Shown here piece by piece: positions 4,518 to 48,034 of a stretch of DNA of 64,000 bases. Numbering within the stretch: the first letter of the stretch is position 1; each line of letters begins with the position of its first letter. Source of the DNA: Escherichia coli (GTDB taxonomy: Bacteria > Pseudomonadota > Gammaproteobacteria > Enterobacterales > Enterobacteriaceae). The position numbers and the translations under genes are program-made. Below the pieces are notes generated by a model. That model made no database searches. It was not told the origin of the DNA and saw only the letters and a list, made by a program, of their open reading frames with translations. The DNA lies in the NCBI RefSeq assembly GCF_024502345.1, contig NZ_JALDNN010000001.1. One strand, 5' to 3'.

Positions 4518-7145
4518 ATGAGCGACCTTGCGAGAGAAATTACACCGGTCAACATTGAGGAAGAGCTGAAGAGCTCCTATCTGGATTATGCGATGTCGGT
4601 CATTGTTGGCCGTGCGCTGCCAGATGTCCGAGATGGCCTGAAGCCGGTACACCGTCGCGTACTTTACGCCATGAACGTACTAGGCAATGACTGGAACAAA
4701 GCCTATAAAAAATCTGCCCGTGTCGTTGGTGACGTAATCGGTAAATACCATCCCCATGGTGACTCGGCGGTTTATGACACGATCGTCCGTATGGCGCAGC
4801 CATTCTCGCTGCGTTACATGCTGGTAGACGGTCAGGGTAACTTCGGTTCCATCGACGGCGACTCTGCGGCGGCAATGCGTTATACGGAAATCCGTCTGGC
4901 GAAAATTGCCCATGAACTGATGGCCGATCTCGAAAAAGAGACGGTCGATTTTGTTGATAACTATGACGGCACGGAAAAAATTCCCGACGTCATGCCAACC
5001 AAAATTCCTAACCTGCTGGTGAACGGTTCTTCCGGTATCGCCGTAGGTATGGCAACCAACATCCCGCCGCACAACCTGACGGAAGTCATCAACGGTTGTC
5101 TGGCGTATATCGATGATGAAGACATCAGCATTGAAGGGCTGATGGAACACATCCCGGGGCCGGACTTCCCGACGGCGGCAATCATTAACGGTCGTCGCGG
5201 TATTGAAGAAGCTTACCGTACCGGTCGCGGCAAGGTGTATATCCGCGCTCGCGCAGAAGTGGAAGTTGACGCCAAAACCGGTCGTGAAACCATTATCGTC
5301 CACGAAATTCCGTATCAGGTAAACAAAGCGCGCCTGATCGAGAAGATTGCGGAACTGGTAAAAGAAAAACGCGTGGAAGGCATCAGCGCGCTGCGTGACG
5401 AGTCTGACAAAGACGGTATGCGCATCGTGATTGAAGTGAAACGCGATGCGGTCGGTGAAGTTGTGCTCAACAACCTCTACTCCCAGACCCAGTTGCAGGT
5501 TTCTTTCGGTATCAACATGGTGGCATTGCACCATGGTCAGCCGAAGATCATGAACCTGAAAGACATCATCGCGGCGTTTGTTCGTCACCGCCGTGAAGTG
5601 GTGACCCGTCGTACTATTTTCGAACTGCGTAAAGCTCGCGATCGTGCTCATATCCTTGAAGCATTAGCCGTGGCGCTGGCGAACATCGACCCGATCATCG
5701 AACTGATCCGTCATGCGCCGACGCCTGCAGAAGCGAAAACTGCGCTGGTTGCTAATCCGTGGCAGCTGGGCAACGTTGCCGCGATGCTCGAACGTGCTGG
5801 CGACGATGCTGCGCGTCCGGAATGGCTGGAGCCAGAGTTCGGCGTGCGTGATGGTCTGTACTACCTGACCGAACAGCAAGCTCAGGCGATTCTGGATCTG
5901 CGTTTGCAGAAACTGACCGGCCTTGAGCACGAAAAACTGCTCGACGAATACAAAGAGCTGCTGGATCAGATCGCGGAACTGTTGCGTATTCTTGGTAGCG
6001 CCGATCGTCTGATGGAAGTGATCCGCGAAGAGCTGGAGCTGGTTCGTGAACAGTTCGGTGACAAACGTCGTACTGAAATCACCGCCAACAGCGCAGACAT
6101 CAACCTGGAAGATCTGATCACCCAGGAAGATGTGGTCGTGACGCTCTCTCACCAGGGCTATGTTAAATATCAGCCGCTTTCTGAATACGAAGCGCAGCGT
6201 CGTGGCGGGAAAGGTAAATCTGCCGCACGTATTAAAGAAGAAGACTTTATCGACCGACTGCTGGTGGCAAACACGCACGACCATATTCTGTGCTTCTCCA
6301 GCCGTGGTCGCGTCTATTCGATGAAAGTTTACCAGTTGCCGGAGGCCACTCGTGGCGCGCGCGGTCGTCCGATCGTCAACCTGCTGCCGCTGGAGCAGGA
6401 CGAACGTATCACCGCGATCCTGCCGGTGACCGAGTTTGAAGAAGGCGTGAAAGTCTTCATGGCGACCGCTAACGGTACTGTGAAGAAAACCGTCCTCACC
6501 GAATTCAACCGTCTGCGTACCGCCGGTAAAGTGGCGATCAAACTGGTTGAAGGCGATGAGCTGATCGGCGTTGATCTGACCAGTGGCGAAGATGAAGTAA
6601 TGCTGTTCTCCGCCGAAGGTAAAGTGGTGCGCTTTAAAGAGTCTTCTGTCCGTGCGATGGGCTGCAACACCACCGGTGTTCGCGGTATTCGTTTAGGCGA
6701 AGGCGATAAAGTCGTCTCTCTGATCGTGCCTCGTGGCGATGGCGCAATCCTCACCGCAACGCAGAACGGTTATGGTAAACGTACTGCAGTGGCGGAATAC
6801 CCGACTAAGTCGCGTGCGACGAAAGGGGTTATCTCCATCAAGGTTACCGAACGTAACGGTTTAGTGGTTGGCGCGGTGCAGGTAGATGACTGCGACCAGA
6901 TCATGATGATCACCGATGCCGGTACGCTGGTACGTACGCGCGTTTCAGAAATCAGCATCGTGGGCCGTAACACCCAGGGCGTGATCCTCATCCGTACTGC
7001 GGAAGATGAAAACGTAGTGGGTCTGCAACGTGTTGCTGAACCGGTTGACGAGGAAGATCTGGATACCATCGACGGCAGTGCCGCGGAAGGGGACGATGAA
7101 ATCGCTCCGGAAGTGGACGTTGACGACGAGCCAGAAGAAGAATAA
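4518..7145 (+). CDS. gyrA: DNA gyrase subunit A
   Basis: 875-aa translation beginning [47 protein letters not shown]; acidic C-terminal tail; wild-type S83 and D87 in the QRDR. Confidence 0.98.
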
Positions 7146-16845: not shown

Positions 16846-19695
16846 TTGAAATACCTTGCTTCTTTTCGTACAACCCTGAAAGCCTCGCGCTACATGTTCA
16901 GAGCATTGGCGTTAGTGCTCTGGCTGTTGATTGCTTTTTCATCCGTTTTTTACATCGTTAATGCGTTACATCAGCGAGAATCGGAAATTCGTCAGGAATT
17001 TAATCTGAGTTCCGATCAGGCTCAGCGCTTTATTCAACGCACCTCTGATGTGATGAAAGAGCTGAAGTACATCGCCGAAAATCGCTTATCGGCAGAAAAC
17101 GGTGTGCTTTCCCCGCGTGGACGAGAAACGCAGGCGGATGTGCCTGCGTTTGAACCGCTGTTTGCCGACTCCGATTGTTCAGCAATGAGTAACACCTGGC
17201 GAGGTTCTCTGGAGTCATTGGCGTGGTTTATGCGCTACTGGCGCGATAATTTTTCTGCGGCTTACGATCTCAATCGGGTATTTTTAATCGGCAGCGATAA
17301 CCTCTGCATGGCCAATTTCGGTCTGCGTGATATGCCAGTGGAACGCGATACCGCGTTGAAAGCGTTGCATGAACGCATCAATAAATATCGAAATGCACCA
17401 CAAGATGATAGCGGCAGTAACCTCTACTGGATCAGCGAAGGTCCGCGCCCTGGCGTCGGGTATTTTTACGCGTTGACGCCAGTTTATCTGGCGAACCGGT
17501 TGCAGGCGCTTTTGGGTGTCGAGCAGACCATCCGGATGGAGAATTTTTTCTTACCTGGTACGTTGCCGATGGGGGTTACCATTCTTGATGAAAATGGTCA
17601 TACCCTGATTTCGCTTACCGGACCAGAAAGCAAAATTAAGGGCGATCCTCGCTGGATGCAGGAACGCTCCTGGTTTGGCTATACGGAAGGGTTCCGGGAG
17701 CTGGTGCTGAAGAAAAATCTGCCACCCTCATCGCTAAGCATCGTTTATTCGGTGCCGGTTGATAAGGTGCTGGAACGCATTCGCATGTTGATCCTTAACG
17801 CAATTTTGCTGAATGTGCTTGCCGGAGCTGCATTGTTTACTCTCGCGCGGATGTACGAGCGGCGTATTTTCATTCCGGCGGAAAGCGACGCCCTGCGACT
17901 GGAAGAACATGAGCAGTTCAATCGCAAGATTGTCGCCTCCGCGCCAGTGGGTATCTGCATTTTGCGTACCGCTGATGGCGTCAATATTTTAAGTAACGAA
18001 CTGGCGCATACCTATCTCAATATGCTTACGCATGAGGACCGCCAACGACTGACGCAAATTATCTGTGGGCAGCAGGTCAATTTTGTTGATGTCCTGACCA
18101 GCAACAATACCAATCTGCAAATCAGCTTCGTCCATTCGCGCTATCGTAATGAAAACGTGGCCATTTGTGTGCTGGTGGATGTTTCTTCGCGCGTGAAGAT
18201 GGAAGAGTCGTTGCAGGAGATGGCACAAGCAGCGGAACAGGCGAGCCAGTCAAAATCGATGTTCCTTGCCACCGTCAGTCATGAGCTGCGAACGCCGCTG
18301 TATGGCATTATCGGTAACCTGGATCTGTTGCAAACCAAAGAGTTACCGAAAGGCGTCGATCGTCTGGTGACGGCAATGAACAACTCTTCCAGCCTGTTGT
18401 TGAAAATTATCAGCGATATTCTCGATTTCTCGAAGATTGAATCAGAACAGTTGAAGATCGAACCGCGTGAGTTTTCACCGCGTGAAGTGATGAACCACAT
18501 CACCGCCAACTATTTACCGCTGGTGGTACGCAAGCAGTTAGGCTTGTACTGCTTTATTGAACCGGATGTGCCAGTGGCTTTAAATGGCGACCCGATGCGT
18601 TTACAGCAGGTCATCTCCAACCTGTTGAGTAACGCCATAAAATTCACCGATACCGGCTGTATAGTTTTGCATGTTCGCGCTGATGGCGATTATCTCTCTA
18701 TCCGTGTTCGCGATACCGGCGTGGGGATACCGGCGAAAGAAGTGGTGCGCTTGTTTGATCCCTTCTTCCAGGTCGGAACGGGCGTACAGCGAAACTTCCA
18801 GGGGACCGGTCTGGGTCTGGCGATTTGTGAAAAACTGATCAGCATGATGGACGGCGACATCTCGGTAGATTCAGAACCGGGAATGGGCAGCCAGTTTACC
18901 GTGCGTATTCCGTTGTACGGCGCTCAGTACCCGCAGAAAAAAGGCGTGGAAGGGTTGAGTGGTAAACGCTGCTGGCTGGCGGTCCGCAATGCGTCGCTCT
19001 GTCAGTTCCTGGAAACCAGTTTGCAGCGCAGCGGCATCGTCGTAACAACATACGAAGGGCAGGAACCGACTCCCGAAGATGTGTTAATTACTGACGAGGT
19101 AGTGAGTAAAAAATGGCAGGGTAGAGCGGTAGTGACCTTCTGTCGTCGCCATATTGGTATTCCGCTGGAGAAAGCGCCAGGGGAGTGGGTACACAGTGTG
19201 GCTGCTCCGCATGAGCTACCGGCATTGTTGGCGCGTATTTATTTGATCGAGATGGAGAGCGACGATCCTGCTAACGCTCTGCCGTCGACGGACAAAGCGG
19301 TCAGCGATAATGACGATATGATGATTCTGGTCGTGGATGATCATCCGATTAACCGACGTCTGCTGGCAGATCAGTTGGGATCGTTGGGCTATCAATGTAA
19401 AACCGCGAATGATGGCGTCGATGCGCTTAATGTACTTAGCAAGAATCATATTGATATCGTGCTTAGCGACGTCAACATGCCAAATATGGATGGTTACCGC
19501 TTGACGCAACGCATTCGTCAGTTGGGACTGACGTTGCCGGTAATCGGAGTAACTGCTAATGCGTTGGCTGAAGAGAAGCAGCGGTGTCTGGAGTCCGGTA
19601 TGGACAGCTGCCTGTCGAAGCCGGTAACGCTGGATGTGATAAAACAGACGCTGACGGTATATGCCGAGAGGGTCAGGAAATCGCGGGAATCGTAG
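16846..19695 (+). CDS. rcsC: hybrid sensor histidine kinase of the Rcs phosphorelay
   Basis: 949-aa ORF MKYLASFRTTLKASRYMFRALALVLWLL...; H-box SHELRTPL, ATPase motifs and C-terminal receiver domain (VVDDHPINRRLL); apparent TTG start. Confidence 0.96.
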   Translation: MKYLASFRTTLKASRYMFRALALVLWLLIAFSSVFYIVNALHQRESEIRQEFNLSSDQAQRFIQRTSDVMKELKYIAENRLSAENGVLSPRGRETQADVPAFEPLFADSDCSAMSNTWRGSLESLAWFMRYWRDNFSAAYDLNRVFLIGSDNLCMANFGLRDMPVERDTALKALHERINKYRNAPQDDSGSNLYWISEGPRPGVGYFYALTPVYLANRLQALLGVEQTIRMENFFLPGTLPMGVTILDENGHTLISLTGPESKIKGDPRWMQERSWFGYTEGFRELVLKKNLPPSSLSIVYSVPVDKVLERIRMLILNAILLNVLAGAALFTLARMYERRIFIPAESDALRLEEHEQFNRKIVASAPVGICILRTADGVNILSNELAHTYLNMLTHEDRQRLTQIICGQQVNFVDVLTSNNTNLQISFVHSRYRNENVAICVLVDVSSRVKMEESLQEMAQAAEQASQSKSMFLATVSHELRTPLYGIIGNLDLLQTKELPKGVDRLVTAMNNSSSLLLKIISDILDFSKIESEQLKIEPREFSPREVMNHITANYLPLVVRKQLGLYCFIEPDVPVALNGDPMRLQQVISNLLSNAIKFTDTGCIVLHVRADGDYLSIRVRDTGVGIPAKEVVRLFDPFFQVGTGVQRNFQGTGLGLAICEKLISMMDGDISVDSEPGMGSQFTVRIPLYGAQYPQKKGVEGLSGKRCWLAVRNASLCQFLETSLQRSGIVVTTYEGQEPTPEDVLITDEVVSKKWQGRAVVTFCRRHIGIPLEKAPGEWVHSVAAPHELPALLARIYLIEMESDDPANALPSTDKAVSDNDDMMILVVDDHPINRRLLADQLGSLGYQCKTANDGVDALNVLSKNHIDIVLSDVNMPNMDGYRLTQRIRQLGLTLPVIGVTANALAEEKQRCLESGMDSCLSKPVTLDVIKQTLTVYAERVRKSRES

Positions 19696-19890
19696 GACGG
19701 ATAAGGTGTTTATGCCGCATCCGGCATTCAGTGCAAATGCCAGATGCGACGCTGACGCGTCTTATCTGGCCTACTTTAATGTAATCTGTTGAAATAATGG
19801 GAATCGTAGGACGGATAAGGCGTTTACGCCGCATCCGGCAATCGGTGCAAATGCCAGATAAGACACTAACGCGTCTTATCTGGCCTACAG
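19696..19890. repeat. REP/BIME elements (two copies) between convergent rcsC and rcsB
   Basis: Two near-identical units gacggataaggygtttaygccgcatccggca...gccagat.agacgc...gcgtcttatctggcctac. Confidence 0.7.
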
Positions 19891-23545: not shown

Positions 23546-23638
23546 AAAAAAAACCGGATGCGAGGCATCCGGTTGAAATAGGGGTAAACAGACATTCAGA
23601 AATGAATGACGGTAATAAATAAAGTTAATGATGATAGC
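23546..23638 (-). ncRNA. micF: MicF antisense sRNA
   Basis: Reverse complement reads GCTATCATCATTAACTTTATTTATTACCGTCATTCATTTCTGAATGTCTGTTTACCCCTATTTCAACCGG...GCCTCGCATCCGG followed by a T-run; divergent from ompC. Confidence 0.85.
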
Positions 23639-23972
23639 GGGAGATATTCTAGTTGCGAGTGAAGGTTTTGTTTTGACATTCAGTGCTGTCAAATACTTAA
23701 GAATAAGTTATTGATTTTAACCTTGAATTATTATTGCTTGATGTTAGGTGCTTATTTCGCCATTCCGTAATAATCTTAAAAAGTTCCCTTGCATTTACAT
23801 TTTGAAACATCTATAGCGATAAATGAAACATCTTAAAAGTTTTAGTATCATATTCGTGTTGGATTATTCTGCATTTTTGGGGAGAATGGACCTGCCGACT
23901 GATTAATGAGGGTTAATCAGTATGCAGTGGCATAAAAAAGCAAATAAAGGCATATAACAGAGGGTTAATAAC
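23639..23972. promoter_or_regulatory. micF-ompC divergent control region (expected OmpR-binding region)
   Basis: AT-rich intergenic region between the divergent micF and ompC; individual sites not resolved by eye. Confidence 0.45.
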
Positions 23973-31627: not shown

Positions 31628-32100
31628 GTGCCACATCCGGCATGGTATGCCGGATGTGGCGTATGCTGATAAGACGCGCCAGCGTCGCATCAGGCAACCG
31701 GCTCGGGCGTTAGATGTCGGATGCGGCGTGACCGCCTTATCCGACCTACGGGGTGGAGCACTTCACAGCGGTGTAGGCCTGATAAGACGCGTCAGCGTCG
31801 CATCAGGCAACCGGCTCGGACGTTGGATGTCGGATGCGGCGTAACCGCCTTATCCGACCTACGGGGTGGAGCACTTCACAGCGGTGTAGGCCTGATAAGA
31901 CGCGTCAGCGTCGCATCAGGCAACCGGCTCGGACGTTGGATGTCGGATGCGGCGTAACCGACTTATTCGACCTACGGGGTGGAGCACTTCACAGCGGCGT
32001 AGGCCTGATAAGACGCGTCAGCGTCGCATCAGGCAACCGGCTCGGGCGTTAGATGTCGGATGCGGCGTGACCGCCTTATCCGACCTACGGGGTGACGCAC
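31628..32100. repeat. mqo terminator hairpin followed by a tandem array of about four 113-bp BIME/REP units
   Basis: Perfect 13-bp inverted repeat ccacatccggcat/atgccggatgtgg, then a 113-bp unit (gataagacgcg.cagcgtcgcatcaggcaaccggctcgg.cgtt.gatgtcggatgcggcgt.accgccttatccgacctacggggtggagcacttcacagcgg.gtaggcct) repeated with few substitutions. Confidence 0.8.
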
Positions 32101-36939: not shown

Positions 36940-37789
36940 ACGTGACGCCGGGCGCGAGGCGCTGGAGAAAAAAGGCTGGTGGCGCAGTCACCGTTGGCTG
37001 GTGTTACGTCGCCTTTGTCAGTTCTTCGTGCTGGGGATGTTTTTGAGCGGTCCGTGGTTTGGTGTGTGGATCTTGCACGGCAACTACAGCAGTAGCCTGT
37101 TATTCGACACCGTTCCGCTGACCGATCCGCTGATGACGCTGCAAAGTCTTGCCAGTGGTCATCTGCCTGCCACGGTGGCGTTGACCGGTGCGGTGATTAT
37201 CACCGTGCTCTACGCCCTGGCAGGAAAGCGATTATTTTGCAGCTGGGTCTGCCCGCTGAACCCGATTACCGACTTAGCGAACTGGTTACGCAGGCGCTTT
37301 GACCTCAATCAGTCTGCGACGATCCCTCGCCACATTCGCTACGTGCTGTTGGTGGTCATTCTGGTGGGATCTGCCTTAACTGGCACGCTCATCTGGGAAT
37401 GGATCAACCCCGTTTCCCTGATGGGGCGTAGCCTGGTAATGGGCTTCGGCAGCGGCGCGCTGCTTATTCTCGCGCTGTTTTTATTTGATCTACTGGTCGT
37501 TGAACACGGCTGGTGCGGGCACATTTGTCCGGTTGGCGCGCTGTATGGCGTGCTGGGTAGCAAAGGTGTGATTACCGTTGCGGCCAGCGATCGGCAGAAA
37601 TGTAACCGCTGTATGGATTGTTTTCATGTTTGCCCGGAACCGCATGTGCTACGTGCCCCGGTGCTGGATGAACAAAGCCCGGTGCAGGTCACCAGCCGCG
37701 ATTGCATGACGTGCGGTCGCTGCGTGGATGTCTGTTCTGAGGATGTATTTACAATAACTACACGATGGAGTTCGGGAGCGAAATCATGA
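36926..37789 (+). CDS. napH: membrane ferredoxin-type protein NapH
   Basis: 287 aa, TM segments plus C-terminal CxxCxxC motifs. Confidence 0.94.
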
Positions 37790-38229
37790 AAAGCCATGAC
37801 CTGAAGAAAGCGCTGTGTCAATGGACGGCGATGCTGGCCCTGGTGGTAAGCGGCGCGGTTTGGGCGGCTAATGGCGTCGATTTTAGCCAGTCGCCGGAAG
37901 TATCCGGGACGCAGGAAGGGGCCATTCGGATGCCAAAAGAGCAGGATCGGATGCCGCTGAACTATGTGAATCAGCCGCCAATGATCCCGCATAGCGTTGA
38001 AGGTTATCAGGTAACGACCAATACCAACCGCTGCTTGCAGTGCCACGGTGTCGAAAGCTATCGCACCACTGGCGCGCCGCGTATCAGTCCTACTCACTTT
38101 ATGGACAGCGACGGCAAAGTGGGCGCGGAAGTGGCTCCGCGTCGTTATTTCTGTCTGCAATGTCACGTACCGCAGGCCGATACCGCGCCAATCGTGGGGA
38201 ATACCTTTACCCCATCAAATACCGAATGA
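37786..38229 (+). CDS. napB: periplasmic nitrate reductase dihaem cytochrome c subunit; final codons appear replaced at the prophage junction
   Basis: [27 protein letters not shown]... with two CxxCH motifs (CLQCH x2); ends ...NTFTPSNTE whereas the remembered reference ends ...TPSKGYGK. Confidence 0.88.
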   Translation: MKSHDLKKALCQWTAMLALVVSGAVWAANGVDFSQSPEVSGTQEGAIRMPKEQDRMPLNYVNQPPMIPHSVEGYQVTTNTNRCLQCHGVESYRTTGAPRISPTHFMDSDGKVGAEVAPRRYFCLQCHVPQADTAPIVGNTFTPSNTE

Positions 38230-38671
38230 AGTGGACTATCGAAAATTGCAGGAACTGTTCACGCGGATCGCCATCGATAAACATATTCAGCAAAAGCTTG
38301 AACATCCTCACCACCAGCTGGTGGCTACCTACCAGTCATTAAACCGCAAGTATTCAGAATTGCTGGAGGAATACAAAATCCTTCGGCGCTGCTTCTCTGT
38401 TTCCGCTCTTGTTCCTTATACCGACGTATGGACACATAAGCCTGTTCAGTTTTATCCAGGCAAACATCCATGCGAAAAACCTGCCGACATGCTGAAACAG
38501 ATCATTAGCGCCAGCAGCAGACCGGGGGATATCGTTGCCGATTTCTTTATGGGCTCTGGTTCAACTGTGAAAGCTGCAATAGAACTTGGCCGTCGGGCGA
38601 TCGGCGTAGAACTGGAGGCAGACAGGTTTATACAGACCACCGAAGAGGTGGAAAAACTGAAAAAATCATAA
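38219..38671 (+). pseudogene. 5'-truncated phage DNA N6-adenine/N4-cytosine methyltransferase (C-terminal fragment only)
   Basis: HPCEKP and DIVADFFMGSGSTVKAAIELGRRAIGVELE (FxGxG SAM-binding motif I) present; no DPPY catalytic motif and no in-frame start after the napB junction. Confidence 0.6.
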
Positions 38672-38816: not shown

Positions 38817-39095
38817 ATGACCAGAATGAGCACCATTTACAGCAGACTTTCATATGGATCAGGAACCACGCTTGCCGGCTGCGGTGTATCAGCGAAGGCA
38901 TATGCCGAAACAGCTAAAACAGCAAAAGAGGTGTCCTGGATGTTGGCCGACAGAATTGCAGGGTTAAGCCTGAGTGACTGGGCAATTATTGTCGGTATCG
39001 CATGCACAGTTATCACCTGTGCAGTGAACTGGTATTACAGGAAAAAGGAAAGGGAGGACCGGCTTAATGGCAATGTCACCAAAGCAGAAGAATAA
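38817..39095 (+). CDS. putative holin (pinholin-like, possible dual start MTRM)
   Basis: 92-aa ORF with strong RBS ggaggtga, hydrophobic TM segment WAIIVGIACTVITCAVNWYY and charged C-terminus; directly upstream of the endolysin. Confidence 0.6.
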   Translation: MTRMSTIYSRLSYGSGTTLAGCGVSAKAYAETAKTAKEVSWMLADRIAGLSLSDWAIIVGIACTVITCAVNWYYRKKEREDRLNGNVTKAEE

Positions 39096-39615
39096 ACTGA
39101 GCGCAGCGGTCGTTGGGTTAATTCTTGCCGGGGCTTCCGCACCCGTGATTCTCGATCAGTTTCTGGATGAGAAAGAGGGTAACAGCACAACAGCGTACAA
39201 GGACGGCTCTGGTATATGGACCATTTGTCGTGGCGCTACGATGGTTGATGGCAAGCCAGTAGTTCAGGGCATGAAGCTGTCTGCTGAGAAATGTTCCAAG
39301 GTGAACGCCATAGAACGCGACAAGGCGCTGGCGTGGGTCGAGCGAAACATCAAGGTGCCACTGACCGAACCACAGAAAGCCGGGATCGCGTCTTTCTGCC
39401 CATATAACATCGGTCCCGGAAAATGTTTCCCATCTACGTTCTATAAGCGAATAAATGCTGGCGACCGTGAAGGTGCCTGTGAAGCGATCCGCTGGTGGAT
39501 AAAAGACGGTGGTCGCGATTGTCGTCTGACCAAAGGGCAGAAGAACGGTTGCTATGGTCAGGTTGAACGGCGAGACCAGGAAAGCGCGTTGACGTGCTGG
39601 GGGATAGACCAGTGA
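39067..39615 (+). CDS. SAR endolysin (T4-lysozyme-like muramidase with N-terminal signal-anchor-release domain)
   Basis: N-terminal [19 protein letters not shown] hydrophobic segment followed by the E-x8-D-x5-T catalytic triad context ([20 protein letters not shown]). Confidence 0.85.
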
Positions 39616-40127
39616 GCCTGCGCTATCAGTTCATTGTTATTTTGTTGCTGGTGGCCGTTGCATTCTTCGCGGGTAGTGTATGGAGCAGCCGCGGTTGGGA
39701 AAAGAAGTGGGCCGAGCGTGACAGCGTAGAATCATCGCAAACAGCGAACGCACAGACCGCCGCTCGCATGATTGAACAAGGGCGTATTATTGCCCGTGAT
39801 GAGGCTGTAAAAGATGCACAAGCACAAGCCGCTAAATCCGCTGCCACTGCTGCTGGCCTGTCTGCCACTGTTAACCAGCTGCGTACCGAAGCAACAAAGC
39901 TTGCCACTCGCCTGGACGCCGCAAAGCACACCGCAGATCTTGCCACTGCCGTCAGAAGCAAAACAGCCGGAGCCGACGCCGCAGTGCTCGCCGACATGCT
40001 CGGACGCCTTGCAGAAGAAGCTCGATATTATGCTGAGCGATCTGACGAAAGCTACCGGGCAGGAATGACGTGTGAGCGCATTTACGACTCAGTGAGGCAG
40101 TCAAACAACAACAGGGTTAGAAGATGA
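39594..40127 (+). CDS. i-spanin Rz
   Basis: N-terminal TM ([15 protein letters not shown]) plus coiled-coil Ala/Gln-rich periplasmic domain; overlaps the endolysin end; contains the embedded Rz1 frame. Confidence 0.75.
39814..40068 (+). CDS. o-spanin Rz1 (lipoprotein) embedded in the +1 frame of Rz
   Basis: Signal peptide with lipobox-like LLTSC, then a Pro-rich mature region; entirely inside Rz. Confidence 0.65.
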
Positions 40128-40354
40128 ACGCAGAAAACCTAAGTGAAGCGTATTACCTCAATAACGATATAAAAGAACTACAACTTCAGAAAAGCATACT
40201 GGAAAGTGGTGCCGGACTTGGTGTGACAATCCAGTCTACCTATCAGGATAACGCCTTTCTTGATGCCATACGCCCGCATGCAGTGGCTGAACTTGATCGC
40301 CGTATTGTGGAGAAGAAAAAAAACCTCTCCACTCTGGGTGTTACATTCTCTTAA
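40124..40354 (+). CDS. hypothetical small prophage protein (76 aa)
   Basis: ORF starting 4 nt before the Rz stop (translational coupling); no recognisable motif. Confidence 0.35.
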
Positions 40355-40738
40355 ATGAGAACAACAATAAAAGGTTATGTCTGCTTTGCCACATTCTGAG
40401 AGTATGAGTTTTATTTGGTAGTCAATCAGTTACTTTATTGGTTTGCTTTCCGATGGAAGATAGATGTTTCCACAGAAGGGGCAAATTAACGTTATATTGT
40501 TTTTTATTCTCGACAGACTGTGCTTTGACTGGCGGGAGCAATGAGGACAAGTACTTTTCACATGGCGTAAAGTACGCATCTTGATATCTTTGAGTATCGA
40601 CATGTTGATTGTCCTGGTGGGCGGTTAACAACCATACACCACATGTTGGCTAATAGCTTCTTTTATAACCGTTACGATGTAGTCGTTAGCCATAATCAAT
40701 CAAGCCTCGCAATAGCGGGGCTTTTTAACAACTGAGGA

Positions 40739-40942
40739 ATGAGCATTACAGTAGTTCTTACAGCTAAGCAGATTGAAGACCTGGCTGCCTTCGCAAAAGA
40801 AGATGGCCAGCCACAATATACCATCACTACCGGAACAATCCCTGAGTTCGAAGCGGATGATGGCGAGGTTATCCCTGAGTACACCGGGCTGATTGCCTAT
40901 TCCGAGTCGCTAGAGCATAGCGTTCTACAGCTCGATAACTAA
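40739..40942 (+). CDS. hypothetical small acidic prophage protein (67 aa); a degenerate paralogue lies at about 42.78-42.96 kb
   Basis: ORF with the motif F-E-ADDG-x-I-P-x-Y-TGL; a similar C-terminal fragment (FDADDGTLSPNTLGLL...) recurs at 42823-42962. Confidence 0.35.
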   Translation: MSITVVLTAKQIEDLAAFAKEDGQPQYTITTGTIPEFEADDGEVIPEYTGLIAYSESLEHSVLQLDN

Positions 40943-40989
40943 CGAATCAACATAACTTTCCATCCGCCATGACACCACAATGCTCGTAG

Positions 40990-41110
40990 ACATGCCAGGA
41001 AGCCTGGCAGAAGAAGCTCGATACCATGCTGAACGCGCTGATGAAAACTACCGAGCAGGAATGACATGTGAGCGGATTTATGAGTCCGTAAAAATACTAA
41101 CAATGAACCG
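40990..41110 (+). pseudogene. remnant 3' end of a second Rz/Rz1 spanin gene
   Basis: Translates to ...[29 protein letters not shown]..., about 80 percent identical to the Rz C-terminus at 40000-40127; no upstream gene body. Confidence 0.6.
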
Positions 41111-41129
41111 TAGAGGAAAAATAATAGCT

Positions 41130-41514
41130 CTATAAATTAAGATGTTGACGGTTTTCGTGGATAAATTTGTGAATTTTTACTATGAAGGAAATACGACTCT
41201 TCCTTGAGTCAAAATCCCTGACAACTTAGGGTGATAGATAAAGGTCTTACGCAGCATGACATAATTTTCGATTTAAGCTATTTAAATTAATTTTTAAGAT
41301 CAAAACCCACTGAGATTTACTTACAAAACTAAACCTTGCTATGTCTGGTTAATCATGCGTTAATGAATGTCTGGTTTGTAACGAATTTATCTGAAGCAGT
41401 CGCTGTAATAATTTTATTCCTTGTTCCTGTTGAGATTTCCTTGTTAGCTTTTCTCTCTGATAAATTTTTTTCGGACCATTCTGCCCAAGGGCTTACTCAA
41501 TAAAGGTAATGTTT
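41130..41514 (+). promoter_or_regulatory. long AT-rich leader/promoter region upstream of the cold-shock gene
   Basis: About 380 bp AT-rich non-coding sequence before csp, as is typical of the long 5' UTRs of cspA-family genes. Confidence 0.35.
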
Positions 41515-41727
41515 ATGTCTAATAAAATGACTGGTTTAGTTAAATGGTTTAATCCTGAAAAAGGTTTTGGTTTTATCACTCCAAAAGATGGTAGTAAAGA
41601 TGTGTTTGTTCACTTCTCTGCTATCCAGAGTAATGATTTCAAGACGTTGAATGAGAATCAGGAAGTTGAATTTAGTGTTGAACAGGGACCTAAAGGCCCC
41701 ACGGCAGTTAATGTCGTGGCTGTATAA
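41515..41727 (+). CDS. cold-shock protein, CspA family (prophage-borne, CspB/CspI-like)
   Basis: [70 protein letters not shown] with RNP1/RNP2 motifs. Confidence 0.9.
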
Positions 41728-41931
41728 GGTAACTGTTATTACTAATAATATTCACTTCAGATGTCCGTGTTGCCACGGATCTCAGTACCGAACGTCAAAC
41801 TTTGATGTTACTGAAAAAAATCCTTTCGGAGCAAAATGTATTTTTTGCAAATCAACAATGATTACATTTGATAATATTGCACTGTACATTCGTTCTGGTC
41901 AGTCTTCGTTAGAATTCAGAAAATAAATTTC

Positions 41932-41953
41932 AGGCTCCTTATGGAGCCTTTTT
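41932..41953 (+). terminator. intrinsic terminator
   Basis: aggctcc-ttat-ggagcct hairpin followed by ttttt. Confidence 0.6.
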
Positions 41954-41999
41954 TGTATGCTGAACCGACAATCTCTGTAAGAGACATCACGGTAAAATT

Positions 42000-42230
42000 A
42001 TGAAAAAAGTCATCGTTTTTTTTAATGCAGAACCAGCAGTTGTTGTAACCGTAATGAAAGGTATTACTACGATAATGCGTGAGTTTCCCAATGGGGAAAA
42101 AGCACACCTACCCGTGATGTCAGCGGGATTTCCATCTCTGACAGGAGACCATAAAATAGTTTATGTAGCCTCTGATCGTGATGTCAGTTCAGAAGAGATC
42201 CTCGAGGCAGCCTCGAAGCTTTTGAAATGA
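42000..42230 (+). CDS. YmcE-like small protein (76 aa)
   Basis: 76-aa ORF immediately upstream of a gnsA/B-like gene, the same arrangement and size as ymcE-gnsA in K-12; identity not verified. Confidence 0.4.
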   Translation: MKKVIVFFNAEPAVVVTVMKGITTIMREFPNGEKAHLPVMSAGFPSLTGDHKIVYVASDRDVSSEEILEAASKLLK

Positions 42231-42434
42231 GATCTGGTTGTTTCGTGACCGACCCGGATTTTAGTACAGTGGTTTGTGTGGTCGCGAGCTCTTTTGCATG
42301 AAGATTGTACTGCAAACTATTGATAATTGAGTCTTTCTATTCTATCTTTTAAACATATCAGCGCTTATACAAGTGCTCTACGGGGAATGTAACATGCCTG
42401 GCGTTGATACGTTAGAGATCAAGAGAGGTAAACA

Positions 42435-42608
42435 ATGAACGTCGAAGATTTAAAAAGAAAAACTGAAGCGGATATTTCTGAATTCATCACAAAAAAAATT
42501 ATTGAACTCAAAAAAAAGACAGGAAAAGAAGTTTCCGATATCCAGTTTAATGCTCGTGAAAAAATGACTGGGCTTGAAAGCTATGATATTAAAATCACAT
42601 TAATCTAA
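42435..42608 (+). CDS. GnsA/GnsB-family protein (57 aa; below the ORF-track size cutoff)
   Basis: Manual translation MNVEDLKRKTEADISEFITKKIIELKKKTGKEVSDIQFNAREKMTGLESYDIKITLI, close to remembered GnsA/GnsB sequences. Confidence 0.8.
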   Translation: MNVEDLKRKTEADISEFITKKIIELKKKTGKEVSDIQFNAREKMTGLESYDIKITLI

Positions 42609-43049
42609 TTGTTATAAGACTCAGTTCGAGTGAAAAAGCATTATCTTGAAAGGTAATGCTTTTTTATTTCTGTCATAAAATTTAGAACGTTGTCAAAGCC
42701 TTCACTTCTAACCACAGATTTTCTGCTTACCTTTTAACGGGTCCTCCTTGACGATTCTGACCATCGAGGGGCAGCAGCGGCGCGGGATTTGGAGCATTTT
42801 TGATTCTTCACGCAACCATTTCAGCATTTGATGCTGATGACGGAACACTATCCCCGAATACACTGGGTTTGTTGCATTCTCTGATTCAAAAGAACACGGT
42901 GTGCTTCAACTTGGCTGAGCAGGCATTACAGCAGACATTCACTGAGTGCCTGCGACAAAGTTAAATGGCATCAAGCATGCGATGATGATTGATTAATAAT
43001 TGAGCTATGCATGGTATAATAAGCCCCATTCATTGAAAGGTTAACCACC

Positions 43050-43214
43050 ATGTCATTTTTCGATTATGCAATGCAGCGTGTTGGGCTTGCAGCCAATACG
43101 ACTGTCATGTGCCCGATATGCGGACATAAATCCACACACTCGACCACGAAAGTACGCCAACAACAGGCGTTACTTTGCCCTAAATGTAAATCGCTGTTTG
43201 TCATTCACAGATAA
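43050..43214 (+). CDS. hypothetical small zinc-ribbon protein (about 54 aa; below track cutoff)
   Basis: Manual translation MSFFDYAMQRVGLAANTTVMCPICGHKSTHSTTKVRQQQALLCPKCKSLFVIHR with CPxCG...CPKC; followed by terminator hairpins. Confidence 0.3.
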   Translation: MSFFDYAMQRVGLAANTTVMCPICGHKSTHSTTKVRQQQALLCPKCKSLFVIHR

Positions 43215-43233
43215 CATGCGACCTGCTGAATAT

Positions 43234-43256
43234 AACCGCCTACGGGCGGTTTTTTA
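43234..43256 (+). terminator. intrinsic terminator (a second hairpin gccactttcgagtggc + T-run follows at about 43271-43293)
   Basis: ccgcc-tacg-ggcgg hairpin followed by tttttt. Confidence 0.6.
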
Positions 43257-43370
43257 TTGCCATCACAAAGGCCACTTTCGAGTGGCTTTTTTAATGGTCA
43301 TCACGACGGGTATTACAGCAGGAATTACTGAGTGCCTGCGATAATGCTCAATATTTTTATCGGAGTGAAT

Positions 43371-45402: not shown

Positions 45403-45969
45403 ACCACGATGAACCAGAGTCAGTACGCACAACATTCAGGTGTGGATCGCAAAACAATTGGTCGGTGGATTAAAGCCGGGCGCTTCATTGTGATGGACGG
45501 AGACCTGATTGACGTAGAGGCCAGCGATGCGGCATTGAAGAAAAACCGCGATGGCAAAGACCCGCGCGCCTCGAACGCGAAGAAAAAGAAAACTCCCGTC
45601 GTTAGCGATAACGATGATGACGGTGATGAAATCAATAAAACTGTCCGCCAGATAATGCTCACTGAAGGGGCAGATCTTTCGAGAGAGGAAGCGGGACGTA
45701 TCCGCGAGAATTACATGGCCCTGCAGGCAAAGCTGCAGTATGAAAAAGACAGCGGCCAGCTTATTGAGCTGACAGCAGCCGAGGAGGTTTTATTCAACGC
45801 CTTTCGCCAACAGCGTGATGCCTGGCTTAACTGGCCGTCCAGGGTGGCGCCGCTAATGGCTGCTGATCTGGATGTACCGGCGGACAGGATGACAGAGGTG
45901 CTGATTGAACATGTCCACAAACACATCTCAGTCCTCGGAGAGCCAGAGTTTAACCCGGCAGAAGATTGA
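45400..45969 (+). CDS. terminase small subunit (lambda Nu1-like)
   Basis: N-terminal winged-helix region (RKTIGRWIKAG) and C-terminal resemblance to lambda Nu1; immediately upstream of the large subunit. Confidence 0.75.
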   Translation: MTTMNQSQYAQHSGVDRKTIGRWIKAGRFIVMDGDLIDVEASDAALKKNRDGKDPRASNAKKKKTPVVSDNDDDGDEINKTVRQIMLTEGADLSREEAGRIRENYMALQAKLQYEKDSGQLIELTAAEEVLFNAFRQQRDAWLNWPSRVAPLMAADLDVPADRMTEVLIEHVHKHISVLGEPEFNPAED

Positions 45970-48034
45970 GCGTCTTGAATTAAGCGTCCGCAAAGGCTGG
46001 ACACCCCCGCCGCGTATCAGTGTGCCGCAGTGGGCAGATGACTATCGTAAGCTGGCAAAAGAGGCTGGGAGCACTTCGGGAAACTGGGAAACATCGACGG
46101 TAGAAATTGCCCGCGGACCGATGCTTGCCGCGACGGAGTCCGGGGTTCATATCATCACTGTAATGTGCTGTACCCAGTTGATGAAGACAGCACTGCTGGA
46201 AAACCTTTTTGGCTATTTTGCCCACCTCGATCCTTGTCCGATACTGCTGCTGCAGCCGAAAGAAGAAGCCGCTGAACAGTTTTCGAAAGAGCGTATTAGC
46301 CCGCTGGTAAGGGTGACGCCGGTACTGCGTAAAATCATCGGTGATTCGAAACAGAAAAGCTCGAAAGAAACCATTCTTTACAAGGCATTCACTGGCGGAT
46401 TTCTGGCGCTGGCGGGTGCTGGTAGCCCTGATAACCTTGCGCGTCGTCCGATTCGTGTCCTGCTGGCGGATGAAGTGGACAAGTACCCGATAACCCGCGA
46501 AGGCGATCCAATTGCGCTGGCCGAAGAGCGTACAGCGACATTTGGCCTGACCTGGCTGTCTGTACGCGCCTGTTCGCCGACGGTGGAGGATGAGAGCCGC
46601 ATTGCTGACAGCTACGCCGACTCCGATCAGCGCCGGGCATCTGTGGTTTGCCCGCACTGTGGCCACCGCCAGTTCCCCGACTTTTTCAAACACGTTCAGT
46701 GGCCGAAAGAGGGAGATAAACACCTGACTAAATCGGCGATGCTCTATTGCGAATGCTGTGGTAGTGGCTGGTCCGAAGGACAGCGCCTCAGAGCTCTGCA
46801 CACTATTCGATGGCATCAGACGCGCCCATTTGAGTGCTGCGGGGAGCGGCACTCACCGCTGATGGATTATGACCTTGCCTGGCGGGCGGCAGACGAGGGC
46901 AGCGTTGAAAAGGTCTGGCAATGGTCAGAGTCGGAACGGCATGCGGTCTATCGCGCAATCTGCCCCTCCTGTGGAAAGGAGGCAGTCGATAACCACCACG
47001 CGGGGTACCAGGCATCCAAGCTTTTCAGCCCCTGGCAAAAAGATAAGCCGTCGGATATTGCGAAAAAATATATCGATGCGAAGGGCGATCCGGATAAGGA
47101 ACAGGCGTGGTGGAATACCCAGATGGGGCTTCCGCACCGACCTAATCATGGGAAACAGCTCCCTGTTGATGTTCTGCTGGCGCGCCGGGAAATATTTCCG
47201 GCCGTCGTTCCGGACGGGGTGGCATTGTTAACAGCTGGAGTTGATACCCAGGACGATCGCTTCGAAATTACGATCACCGGCTGGGGGAGAGATGAAGAAT
47301 CGTGGTCGGTCGCGCATGACGTTATTTATGGTGACCTTGAGACGGAAGAACCCTGGAAGCGACTGGATGCATACCTGAAACAGATCTGGCGACGTGGTGA
47401 CGGGCGCGGCCTGAATATCATGGCAACGTGCATGGACTCCGGTGGCCACCATACGCAGAAGGTATACGAATTCGCCAAAGAGCGTCTTGGCCGTCGTGTC
47501 TGGGCAATTAAGGGGGAGTCTGCACAGGGAGGTAAACGCAATCCTGTCTGGCCGACCAAACGACCATCATCGAAAAGCAAAGCCAGTTTCCGCCCTGTCA
47601 TTCTGGGGGTTAACTCAGCGAAAGACGTGATACGCGGTCGCCTGCATCTTGAGCCACCCAAACCTGGCGCCGCCGCTGCGGGTTATATGCATTTTCCTGA
47701 CGATCGCGATCTCGGGTACTTCAATCAGCTGCTGGCGGAGCGACTGGTTTACAAAGTCATTTCCGGGCAGCGGTACAGTATCTGGGAAGCAATACCAGGA
47801 CGAGCTAACGAAGCGCTTGACTGCCTCGTTTACAGCTATGCCGCGCTGTGCGGTCTCAAACATATGGGGTTAAAACTCAACGTCCGGGCCGCCAACCTCG
47901 AAGCCGATCCGGATAAGTTCCTGCCAGCGCCAGTTGGACAGGAAGAAAAAATCAATTACGAGCTGCCGGGTGCGGTTATTGAAGAACCAGCGCCGGTCAA
48001 ACGTAAGCGAATATCGCAACTCCTGCCGAAATAA
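45905..48034 (+). CDS. terminase large subunit (lambda gpA-like)
   Basis: 709 aa; conserved blocks shared with lambda gpA (VPQWADDYRKL, CPHCGHRQF, LTAGVDTQDDRFEITITGWG, ATCMDSGGHHT, NEALDCLVYSYAA). Confidence 0.9.
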   Translation: MNMSTNTSQSSESQSLTRQKIERLELSVRKGWTPPPRISVPQWADDYRKLAKEAGSTSGNWETSTVEIARGPMLAATESGVHIITVMCCTQLMKTALLENLFGYFAHLDPCPILLLQPKEEAAEQFSKERISPLVRVTPVLRKIIGDSKQKSSKETILYKAFTGGFLALAGAGSPDNLARRPIRVLLADEVDKYPITREGDPIALAEERTATFGLTWLSVRACSPTVEDESRIADSYADSDQRRASVVCPHCGHRQFPDFFKHVQWPKEGDKHLTKSAMLYCECCGSGWSEGQRLRALHTIRWHQTRPFECCGERHSPLMDYDLAWRAADEGSVEKVWQWSESERHAVYRAICPSCGKEAVDNHHAGYQASKLFSPWQKDKPSDIAKKYIDAKGDPDKEQAWWNTQMGLPHRPNHGKQLPVDVLLARREIFPAVVPDGVALLTAGVDTQDDRFEITITGWGRDEESWSVAHDVIYGDLETEEPWKRLDAYLKQIWRRGDGRGLNIMATCMDSGGHHTQKVYEFAKERLGRRVWAIKGESAQGGKRNPVWPTKRPSSKSKASFRPVILGVNSAKDVIRGRLHLEPPKPGAAAAGYMHFPDDRDLGYFNQLLAERLVYKVISGQRYSIWEAIPGRANEALDCLVYSYAALCGLKHMGLKLNVRAANLEADPDKFLPAPVGQEEKINYELPGAVIEEPAPVKRKRISQLLPK

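Follow-up and report, generated by a model that had tools for sequence, protein, structure and literature searches.

A probable Citrobacter-type allele of the lambdoid cspI-ymcF-ynfN-gnsB cargo cassette in an Escherichia coli prophage

We analysed a cold-shock-related gene cluster in a 64,000-nucleotide stretch of the E. coli contig NZ_JALDNN010000001.1 (assembly GCF_024502345.1), hereafter the window. Judging from sequence comparison, we put at roughly 80% the probability that the region is a Citrobacter-type allele of a known lambdoid-prophage cargo cassette, cspI-ymcF(ynfQ)-ynfN-gnsB, seated in a low-GC slot that follows Rz and precedes the packaging genes. A first-pass annotation had described three genes here. 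We found four within 41336-42669, namely csp, a ymcF/ynfQ-like gene, ynfN and a gnsB-like gene, the zinc-ribbon ymcF/ynfQ having been overlooked. Its broader reading of the region as cold-shock and membrane-physiology moron cargo is supported by gene order and position in the prophages Qin and Tritos and by colinearity with E. coli 33F4. Cassettes of this type are already catalogued and are ordinary in lambda-like prophages, and host-physiology cargo in a prophage is already established for the K-12 Qin and phage Tritos versions, to which the present case adds little. The useful yield is a corrected annotation: four genes, an ATT start for ymcF, a full-length 76-aa YnfN and no YmcE.

Composition and setting of the cassette

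The features discussed below are as follows:

38817-39095, holin, a lysis gene left of the cassette
39067-39615, lysozyme, a lysis gene left of the cassette
39594-40127, Rz/DUF2514, a lysis gene left of the cassette
40430-40603, minus strand, gene for a YnfU-family zinc-binding small protein, low-GC cargo left of the cassette
40971-41135, plus strand, duplicated 3' fragment of Rz/DUF2514, directly 5' of the csp promoter region
41336-41364, plus strand, predicted cspI-type sigma-70 promoter (-35 TTGCTA at 41336-41341, 17-nt spacer, -10 GTTAAT at 41359-41364)
41370-41514, plus strand, 145-nt 5' untranslated leader of the cspA/cspI thermosensor type (Rfam RF01766)
41515-41727, plus strand, csp, 70-aa CspI/CspG-type cold-shock protein (Pfam, NCBIfam, blastp)
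41738-41926, plus strand, ymcF/ynfQ-like gene, 62 aa, zinc-ribbon type with two Cys pairs (Pfam PF23641)
41932-41955, plus strand, intrinsic terminator of the csp-ymcF unit, a 7-bp GC-rich hairpin (41932-41949) followed by T6
42000-42230, plus strand, ynfN, 76 aa (blastp, phrog_3425)
42231-42434, plus strand, ynfN-gns spacer, 204 nt, homologous to ymcE DNA, with three in-frame stops
42320-42348, plus strand, predicted gns promoter TTGATA-17-TATCTT, inside the spacer (promoter scan)
42435-42608, plus strand, gnsB-like gene, 57 aa (Pfam PF08178)
42628-42669, plus strand, gns terminator, a long hairpin with A-tract and U-tract
43050-43214, plus strand, second YnfU-family gene, right of the cassette
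45905-48034, GpA-type large terminase, right of the cassette

The cassette lies where the first-pass annotation had placed it, between the lysis genes (Rz ends at 40127) and the terminase (from 45905), and shares one orientation with the late lysis and packaging genes. At 35.8%, its GC content is below the 53-55% of the flanking phage genes. The cassette proteins are 100% identical to known database entries, mostly from Citrobacter, and the host flank of the prophage is 100% E. coli. Searching 5,426 complete E. coli genomes, we obtained matches in 14, the best place reaching 79.8% identity over 49% of the query; since no place in these genomes covered at least 80% of the query, this allele was not seen there. 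An own predicted and conserved promoter, two terminators, atypical GC content and the position between Rz and terminase are all features of a phage moron. Transcription in the lysogen apart from the lytic programme has been shown for the homologous Tritos genes only, and would extend to the present genes by analogy. The minus-strand and leader open reading frames (ORFs) of the region had no Pfam match.

Directly 5' of the csp promoter region, the Rz fragment forms part of a direct repeat (39975-40093 and 40971-41089, 82% identity). It matches positions 124-160 of 161 of the Pfam DUF2514 profile (E=1.5e-9), shares 55% identity with the RzpQ C-terminus and looks like the scar of an ancestral Rz-csp junction such as that of Qin. 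The YnfU-family genes on either side match NCBIfam NF038384 (E=8.8e-22 for 40430-40603, which also matches Pfam PF23499 at E=8e-15, and E=1.1e-20 for 43050-43214), and promoter and terminator scans assigned the second a promoter-like site (42993-43020) and a terminator (43234-43251) of its own. On its left the prophage meets E. coli napB abruptly at 38219/38220, and no integrase or regulatory genes were found on the napB side of the window.

Four genes and their expression signals

The CspA-family gene named in the first-pass annotation is borne out. Its product matches the Pfam CSD profile (E=8e-33, 65 of 66 profile positions) and the NCBIfam CspG equivalog (145.6 bits, cut-off 144), carries both the RNP1 (KGFGFI) and RNP2 (VFVHF) motifs, and by blastp shares 90% identity with K-12 CspI, 80% with CspG and 72% with CspB. 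The start is ATG 41515, 7 nt past an AAGG Shine-Dalgarno (SD) sequence; ATG 41509 was rejected as too near that sequence. These domains and motifs, together with a long structured 5' untranslated region, place the product in the cold-inducible CspA subfamily (CspA/B/G/I), and induction by temperature downshift would be expected from homology.

The long AT-rich leader described earlier also held up. The Rfam cspA thermoregulator model aligned over its full length (1-428) to 41370-41786 with a score of 142.8 bits (gathering threshold 78; E=8e-37). Model position 1 lies 145 nt before the csp ATG, and the published cspI 5' untranslated region is likewise 145 nt long (PMC6719143). At 37 °C the minimum-energy fold is a single long stem-loop that pairs the SD/AUG region, with a fold-energy z-score of just -1.28 that is not distinctive by itself; the cspI and cspG leaders are RNA thermometers by experiment (PMC13271884). 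AT-rich DNA precedes the putative promoter at 41336-41364, whose role we infer from sequence. The promoter block CTTGCTATG...GTTAATCATGCGTTAATG is unchanged in K-12 cspI, phage Tritos, C. braakii and C. amalonaticus and ends 6 nt ahead of Rfam model position 1. This site escaped a generic promoter scan, as position 2 of GTTAAT is not an A.

The terminator had been assigned to csp alone, whereas the 62-aa YmcF/YnfQ-like gene lies between the two. The product of this gene matches Pfam PF23641 (E=6.5e-37, profile positions 2-62 of 62), keeps the Cys pairs CPCC...CIFC and is 76% identical to K-12 YmcF and 73% to YnfQ (blastp). It sits just 3' of a cspG/cspI-type gene, as YmcF and YnfQ do, and starts with ATT, 10 nt after the csp stop. 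At the aligned start codon 26 of 35 copies have ATT and 5 have ATG, and several copies offer no alternative in-frame start after the upstream stop. The in-frame ATG 41711 was rejected as a start, being not conserved and followed by a stop before the ATT in some homologues. The terminator after ymcF was found by a terminator scan (-13.2 kcal/mol, z=-3.97, 0 of 200 shuffles as stable), and a hairpin with a T-run stands at the same position in most related loci, the Raoultella stem differing in sequence. Another hairpin, aligned by Rfam as the 'cspA terminator' (41757-41786), was discarded as a terminator, as no T-run follows it and it lies within the ymcF CPCCHG codons. We also discarded a conserved YnfR-like small ORF, which lacks an ATG at the K-12 position and is broken in E. 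coli 33F4. Another 20-codon ORF (41941-42003) is present but unsupported.

Similarity of the two small downstream products to YmcE and Gns had been set beforehand as the test of the earlier calls; the Gns half passed and the YmcE half failed. The 76-aa ORF does exist, but blastp against K-12 YmcE gave no match at E≤10. Its product is YnfN, with full-length similarity to the 76-aa E. coli 33F4 YnfN (75% identity), to K-12 YnfN (78%) and to phrog_3425 (E=7e-42, positions 1-75 of 76). We collected 160 YnfN homologues, of 75-76 aa and with a conserved N-terminus (MKKVIVFFN). The AlphaFold model (pLDDT 86.8) has five strands and a C-terminal helix. Among 47 species, 35 have ynfN linked to a csp gene and 32 have a YnfU homologue within 2.5 kb of it. 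Small, widespread and csp-linked, with no solved fold relative of its model found, YnfN is a modest lead.

Between ynfN and gns, the ymcE-homologous frame of 42231-42445 is interrupted by three stop codons, and no plus-strand ORF of at least 30 aa was found within 42231-42434; thus, no open frame overlaps the gns start as ymcE does in K-12. The spacer nonetheless resembles YmcE above chance (tblastn 22.7 bits; shuffles 12.8 ± 2.0, 0 of 300 as high), its frame-2 translation reading KLLIIESF and REVNNE where YmcE has NLLIIESF and PEEVNSE. An alignment of seven spacer loci placed the conserved blocks at the -35/-10 region and at the SD (GAGAGG) upstream of gns; the conserved core of the ymcE-homologous spacer is the predicted gns promoter. 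In Citrobacter sp. R56, ynfN and a ymcE-like stretch occur together ahead of gns, indicating that ynfN and ymcE are separate segments rather than alleles. A derivation of ymcE as a frame-shifted copy of ynfN was likewise rejected, since tblastn found nothing resembling YnfN at the K-12 cspG locus, whatever the frame (best E=1.5).

The 57-aa ORF had been called GnsA/B-like, correctly. Its product matches Pfam PF08178 (E=5e-32, positions 1-54 of 54), phrog_2301 (E=1.6e-35) and the sequence of the solved GnsA structure, PDB 4XO2 (E=3.3e-20), and is 82-86% identical to GnsB and 61% to GnsA. The gns terminator (-20.9 kcal/mol, z=-4.95, 0 of 200 shuffles as stable) was missed by the generic scan because its stem has few G-C pairs.

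We regard three further, linked readings as jointly doubtful: that ymcE is no gene, that YnfN is a core cold-shock component and that ynfN expression is gated. The ymcE frame may be open by accident where it crosses the gns promoter and leader, in which case Gns proteins would not be the toxins of a toxin-antitoxin pair. YnfN could belong to the core of a cold-shock gene island in Enterobacterales (csp, ymcF, ynfN, ynfU, gns), and the terminator after ymcF could control YnfN through Csp-dependent antitermination.

Proposed working and alternative readings

By analogy with characterized relatives, transcription from the cspI-type promoter would produce the 145-nt leader, whose 37 °C fold would hide the ribosome-binding site and refold in the cold. 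We therefore propose that the CspI-like RNA chaperone is made mainly after downshift. The YmcF zinc-ribbon protein would be translated from the same mRNA, its SD overlapping the csp stop codon, and most transcripts would end at the terminator after ymcF. The space ahead of ynfN is too short for a separate promoter, and the gene is probably expressed by read-through. The gnsB-like gene, with its own predicted promoter and terminator, would increase the unsaturated fraction of membrane fatty acids, as K-12 GnsA and GnsB do; to our knowledge, the Gns lipid phenotype is known from overexpression alone. According to a preprint that cites Sugai 2001, cold-sensitive mutants are rescued and unsaturated fatty acids increase when gnsA or gnsB is overexpressed, and in K-12 such overexpression suppresses secG-null or fabA6 phenotypes (bioRxiv 10.1101/2024.03.27.586906). 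The cassette as a whole would thereby lend the lysogen extra cold-acclimation capacity. Cold induction, ynfN read-through and the lipid effect are each argued here from homology.

Because the cassette runs parallel to the late operon, it would be transcribed in lytic growth too, which counts against the proposed working. The cassette might serve mainly the phage, as a late-operon passenger whose Csp chaperone or antiterminator, and perhaps Gns membrane changes, aid late expression, lysis or packaging in the cold. Its position between the lysis and packaging genes and its presence in isolated viable temperate phages fit that account, as does the movement as one unit of the 4.2-kb holin-to-gns block (~96% identity), paired in six genomes with one or other of two packaging modules. 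However, an invariant cspI promoter and a thermosensor leader belong to the cassette itself, and its two terminators would stop simple read-through. In addition, uninduced lysogens contain transcripts of the homologous genes (PMC9928086), and the same gene set occurs in phage-free loci (cspG-ymcF-ymcE-gnsA in K-12, csp-ynfN in Klebsiella and Pectobacterium). We consider benefit mainly to the phage unlikely, while noting that it is compatible with lysogen cold acclimation and not mutually exclusive with it.

Two further proposals assign the cassette a role in prophage maintenance or defence. Database names suggest that gns encodes a type II toxin that stabilizes the prophage, with the small upstream gene (ymcE in K-12 and, supposedly, the 76-aa ORF here) as its antitoxin: PF08178 is entitled 'GnsA/GnsB toxin', RefSeq (NCBI PGAP) names E. 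coli Gns homologues 'addiction module toxin', ymcE overlaps the gnsA start in K-12, and ymcE-gnsA appears in a list of E. coli toxin-antitoxin pairs in PMC8484670, citing Wei et al. 2015. Against this, the 76-aa ORF bears no relation to YmcE, and between it and gns lie 204 nt containing a predicted promoter, leaving gns without an adjacent, co-transcribed cognate antitoxin, and the sole ymcE-like DNA carries the three stops. The annotated distance from ynfN to gnsB is 171-172 nt in both K-12 Qin and the Qin-type prophage of E. coli 33F4, with no ymcE annotated in the interval, and Tritos and mEp460_ev081 share the Qin spacing. YnfN occurs without gns in 36 of 47 species loci, unlike an obligate toxin-antitoxin pair, and PADLOC matched neither Gns nor YnfN. 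We judge this proposal very improbable, and the 'addiction module toxin' label of GnsB is hard to square with cassettes that have no YmcE. Even less credible, to the point of being negligible, is a csp product acting in superinfection defence as an anti-phage effector of the retron Se72 or CSD_V type. It does match PADLOC CSD_V (E=3.4e-16), a generic CSD match and the only PADLOC hit in the cassette, and the NCBIfam retron Se72 effector (E=2.5e-14); yet the latter scores 52.9 bits, below its cut-off of 82, whereas the CspG equivalog cut-off is exceeded and identity to CspI is 90%. No reverse transcriptase or ncRNA lies near csp, where the cspA leader is the only Rfam match. The retron Se72 and CSD_V matches reflect the common CSD fold.

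Comparison with known systems

The claim that the same gene trio occurs in K-12 cryptic prophages holds for Qin (rrrQ-rzpQ-cspI-ynfQ-ynfR-ynfN-gnsB) but not for ymcE, which is not part of the prophage version; in K-12, ymcE-gnsA sits with cspG-ymcF, a locus without prophage annotation in the K-12 record. Qin and the present cassette have common genes, order, strand and place directly downstream of an Rz (DUF2514) gene, and their DNA is colinear (77% over 1032 nt and 80% over gnsB), with the same invariant promoter block, ymcF/ynfQ ATT start and terminator place. The E. coli 33F4 Qin-type cassette has the same order and is colinear over 1429 nt (74.7% identity). Whereas ynfN is intact here at 76 aa, K-12 ynfN is annotated at 51 aa; full-length residues 1-8 and 7-75 match different reading frames in K-12, where the T run after codon 5 is one base shorter. 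The 21-codon ynfR ORF of Qin, an sORF induced by cold (PMC6001520), is not kept here. Unlike Qin, the present prophage separates its intact Rz from csp by about 1 kb of additional cargo (a 76-aa phrog_5415 gene, the YnfU gene, a 67-aa phrog_9518 gene and the Rz fragment), and its cassette proteins are closest to Citrobacter entries.

The cassette is also carried by viable temperate lambdoid phages, namely Tritos (a prophage of AIEC LF82), mEp460_ev081, 2H10, HannyBb, PhiR63_1 and PhiR42_1, in the order endolysin-DUF2514-cspI-'cold-shock protein' (ymcF)-ynfN-gnsB. These match our cassette at 76-79% nucleotide identity over 80-95% of its length and represent a different allele with other neighbours on both sides; Tritos ynfN is annotated short, at 51 aa. 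In Tritos lysogens, CspI and YnfN are transcribed 93-fold and 27-fold above the prophage background, making both morons by experiment (PMC9928086), and co-induction of cspI, ynfQ and ynfN by 5.8- to 6.5-fold has been reported (PMC11228462).

Chromosomal relatives share parts of this arrangement. At the E. coli cspH / cspG-ymcF-ymcE-gnsA locus, nucleotide identity to the cassette is 75% for csp-ymcF and 73% for gns, and protein identity is 80% for CspG, 76% for YmcF and 61% for GnsA; the ymcF ATT start is common to both, and the gns -35 TTGAT(T/A) and SD are conserved. This locus lacks ynfN, has no phage genes annotated in the stretch examined and holds an open 76-codon ymcE frame at the place of the stop-ridden spacer here. 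In Klebsiella, Pectobacterium and Enterobacter, csp-ynfN loci have no phage genes and are usually without ymcF and gns, and YnfN (60-72% identity) is encoded directly 3' of a cold-shock-domain gene, with YnfU-family genes nearby and a divergent csp pair adjoining a GH94 glucan-synthase gene.

Gene content and expression signals of the cassette

Four small genes on the same strand occupy the interval 41.5-42.6 kb, as judged from the ORF listing and the raw sequence. The first-pass annotation had read this cassette, which lies between the lysis genes and terminase of the prophage, as a csp-ymcE-gns trio. That observation is partly confirmed: the csp and gnsB-like genes stand, the YmcE assignment and the csp terminator do not, and a fourth gene, ymcF, had been overlooked. 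The interpretation built on the trio is likewise partly supported. The main value of the analysis is a corrected annotation of the cassette, together with two minor leads, namely that Gns occurs in the absence of YmcE and that YnfN is an orphan protein linked to csp.

Features of the cassette and its flanks
40430-40603 (-): YnfU-family zinc-binding small gene
41336-41364 (+): predicted csp promoter, TTGCTA-17 nt-GTTAAT, directly upstream of the leader
41515-41727 (+): csp, 70 aa; Pfam CSD, E=8e-33
41738-41926 (+): ymcF/ynfQ-like gene; Pfam PF23641 (YmcF-like), E=6.5e-37
41932-41955 (+): first terminator, 7-bp GC-rich hairpin and T6, 3' of ymcF
42000-42230 (+): ynfN, 76 aa; phrog_3425, E=7e-42
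42320-42348 (+): predicted gns promoter, TTGATA-17-TATCTT, from a promoter-like site scan
42435-42608 (+): gnsB-like gene, 57 aa; PF08178, E=5e-32; PDB 4XO2 (GnsA), E=3e-20
42628-42669 (+): gns terminator; fold -20.9 kcal/mol, z=-4.95
43050-43214 (+): YnfU-family zinc-binding small gene

The CspA-family gene is as claimed: beyond the CSD domain match, its product exceeds the NCBIfam CspG equivalog cut-off (145.6 versus 144 bits) and shares 90%, 80% and 72% identity with K-12 CspI, CspG and CspB, respectively (blastp). Its true start is ATG 41515, 7 nt past an AAGG Shine-Dalgarno; ATG 41509 was rejected as too near that site. The Rfam cspA thermoregulator model matches at full length (41370-41786; 142.8 bits, gathering score 78), and from model position 1 to the ATG the leader measures 145 nt, as published for the cspI 5'UTR (PMC6719143). 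The cspI, cspG and cspB leaders were recently demonstrated to be RNA thermometers, in which a single large stem-loop occludes the ribosome-binding site at 37 °C (PMC13271884). The leader in the window has a minimum-energy fold of this shape, though of unremarkable energy (z=-1.28). The promoter block is invariant across the window, K-12 cspI, phage Tritos (a prophage of AIEC LF82) and two Citrobacter species. The terminal terminator hairpin of the Rfam model aligns to 41757-41786, the CPCCHG codons of ymcF (TCCGTG-TTGC-CACGGA), and is followed by no T-run.

The overlooked gene lies directly 3' of the csp stop, and its product shares 76% identity with K-12 YmcF and 73% with YnfQ. It starts at ATT 41738, 10 nt past that stop, and its Shine-Dalgarno overlaps the csp stop codon (TAAGGT). 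Among the 35 copies compared, 26 start with ATT at the aligned position and 5 with ATG, and several copies lack an alternative in-frame start downstream of the preceding stop; the in-frame ATG 41711 is not conserved. The terminator that had been assigned to csp comes after ymcF instead (fold -13.2 kcal/mol, z=-3.97). Most related loci also have a hairpin and T-run at this point; the Raoultella stem differs in sequence. Spanning the ymcF 3' end and this terminator (41884-41960, +) is a full-length, sub-threshold Rfam match to the Salmonella sRNA STnc220 (43.2 bits versus gathering score 60; E=1.5e-5), a possible sign that the 3' end of the csp-ymcF transcript persists as a stable fragment.

Because ynfN starts only 45 nt past the end of the first terminator, leaving little space for a promoter, read-through is its likeliest mode of expression; this fits the published finding that cspI, ynfQ and ynfN are induced together (PMC11228462). 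In K-12, the cold-induced ynfR (PMC6001520), of 21 codons, overlaps the terminator hairpin; it is not conserved in the window and is interrupted in E. coli 33F4, which has a Qin-type prophage. The window has a different 20-codon ORF (41941-42003, +), whose stop codon overlaps the start of ynfN (ATGA).

YnfN, Gns and the ymcE-homologous spacer

The 76-aa product had been called YmcE-like. It is YnfN, with 75% identity to the 76-aa YnfN of 33F4 and 78% to that of K-12, and has no blastp similarity to K-12 YmcE at E<=10. Conversely, YnfN similarity was found in no frame of the K-12 cspG-ymcF-ymcE-gnsA locus, where ymcE has 76 codons and overlaps the gnsA start. The 57-aa product is a Gns protein, as proposed (82-86% identity to GnsB, 61% to GnsA).

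In the window, homology to ymcE falls in the 204 nt between ynfN and gns. Translated in one frame, this spacer gives ...KLLIIESF... and ...REVNNE where YmcE has NLLIIESF and PEEVNSE, and the similarity is above chance (22.7 bits; shuffles 12.8 +/- 2.0, with 0 of 300 as high). Judged from the sequence, YmcE protein cannot be made from the cassette, since the frame contains three stop codons. Alignment of seven loci shows the gns -35/-10 region and the gns Shine-Dalgarno as the conserved blocks of the spacer, so that its conserved part looks more like promoter and leader than coding sequence. Pfam and RefSeq use 'addiction module toxin'-type names for Gns proteins, and ymcE-gnsA has been listed as a toxin-antitoxin pair (PMC8484670). 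With a spacer that cannot encode YmcE, this label does not fit the cassette well.

In a Citrobacter sp. R56 locus (L021, 4509-5892), csp-ymcF-ynfN are followed by a ymcE-like stretch, gns and ynfU. The stretch shows 52% identity over 42 aa, with an in-frame stop ahead of it. As both are present in this locus, ynfN and the ymcE-like segment are distinct.

Surroundings of the cassette and the host junction

GC content falls to 35.8% across 41136-42670 and 39.9% across 40128-43260; the lysis and terminase genes are at 53-55%. The two YnfU-family genes also lie in this low-GC stretch, as do two PHROG families lacking assigned function, a second copy of the Rz 3' end and the frameshifted remains of a 67-aa gene. 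These features look like scars of recombination. A 119-nt direct repeat (39975-40093 and 40971-41089, 82% identity) accompanies ORF 40980-41135, a second, truncated Rz (DUF2514) 3' end directly upstream of the csp promoter region, which looks like a relic of a Qin-like Rz-csp junction. The 67-aa gene (phrog_9518) is intact at 40739-40942; its second, frameshifted copy lies at 42814-42915, where one frame reads ...IPEYTGFVAFSDSKEHGVLQLG*.

Six public genomes have a 4.2-kb holin-to-gns block in common with the window (38707/38754-42953, 95-97.5% identity), to the right of which they carry two different packaging modules. In the five with an HNH/Terminase_4/TerL module, the block stops at 42953, inside a 26-nt sequence (42941-42966) that recurs 386 nt downstream (43327-43352); the end of the block may mark a joint left by mosaic recombination. 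For the terminase protein, the sole exact record is an Enterobacter asburiae accession.

Up to 38219 the host flank matches napA-G-H-B of E. coli O157:H7/O55:H7 at 100% identity; there it breaks off abruptly about 10 nt short of the napB end (38219/38220; context 37765-38671). A truncated DNA methylase gene (C-terminal part) and phage lysis genes follow, with no integrase or regulatory genes on the napB side of the prophage within the window. The junction occurs in no complete E. coli genome; it could stem from a deletion that truncated the prophage and fused it to napB, or from a chimeric assembly. Elsewhere in the host part, MicF sRNA (23546-23639, -) adjoins ompC, and two naRNA4/REP-type arrays (19695-19885 and 31664-32085) have 2 and 4 copies over the Rfam threshold.

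Relation to known cassettes

We surveyed ynfN neighbourhoods in 47 species-representative genomes encoding YnfN. A csp gene lies upstream on the same strand within 1 kb in 35 loci, ymcF immediately upstream in 20 and gns downstream in 11; seven have the full four-gene set. YnfU-family genes occur within 2.5 kb of ynfN in 32/47 loci (chromosomal csp loci included), which suggests that csp genes are linked to a wider set of small proteins, YnfU included. The Klebsiella and Pectobacterium ynfN locus is chromosomal and adjoins a GH94 glucan-synthase gene (L011-L016: GH94 glucan synthase - ynfU - csp(-) - csp(+) - (ynfU) - ynfN, phage genes absent). The prophage cargo probably has its chromosomal counterpart, or its source, in this arrangement. 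YnfN proteins are 75-76 aa long with an invariant N-terminus. The 51-aa K-12 annotation looks like a frameshift product, since in Qin (L003, about 6110-6185, -) the segments matching full-length residues 1-8 and 7-75 are in different reading frames, and the run of T that follows codon 5 has one base fewer than in 33F4 and the window.

The trio had been placed in K-12 cryptic prophages. This holds for cspI and gnsB, which are in Qin; ymcE sits in the cspG-gnsA locus, which has no prophage annotation in the K-12 record. Qin carries rrrQ-rzpQ-cspI-ynfQ-ynfR-ynfN-gnsB in exactly the same order and position, and in 33F4 terminase genes come after the same cassette; the DNA is colinear with both (77% identity to Qin; 74.7% to 33F4, over 1429 nt). 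Temperate phage isolates Tritos, mEp460_ev081, 2H10, HannyBb, PhiR63_1 and PhiR42_1 carry the cassette at 76-79% identity. In Qin, 33F4, Tritos and mEp460_ev081, the annotation likewise places gnsB about 170 nt after ynfN and shows no ymcE gene in the gap. In the Tritos lysogen LF82, CspI and YnfN are transcribed 93-fold and 27-fold over the prophage background and have been termed morons (PMC9928086).

A search of 5,426 complete E. coli genomes found the allele of the window in none. Each of the four proteins has a 100% identical counterpart among existing 'MULTISPECIES Enterobacteriaceae' entries, and they cluster otherwise with proteins mostly from Citrobacter. Given these matches and those to Qin, 33F4 and the phages, the cassette is already known, and the copy in the window is a Citrobacter-type allele.
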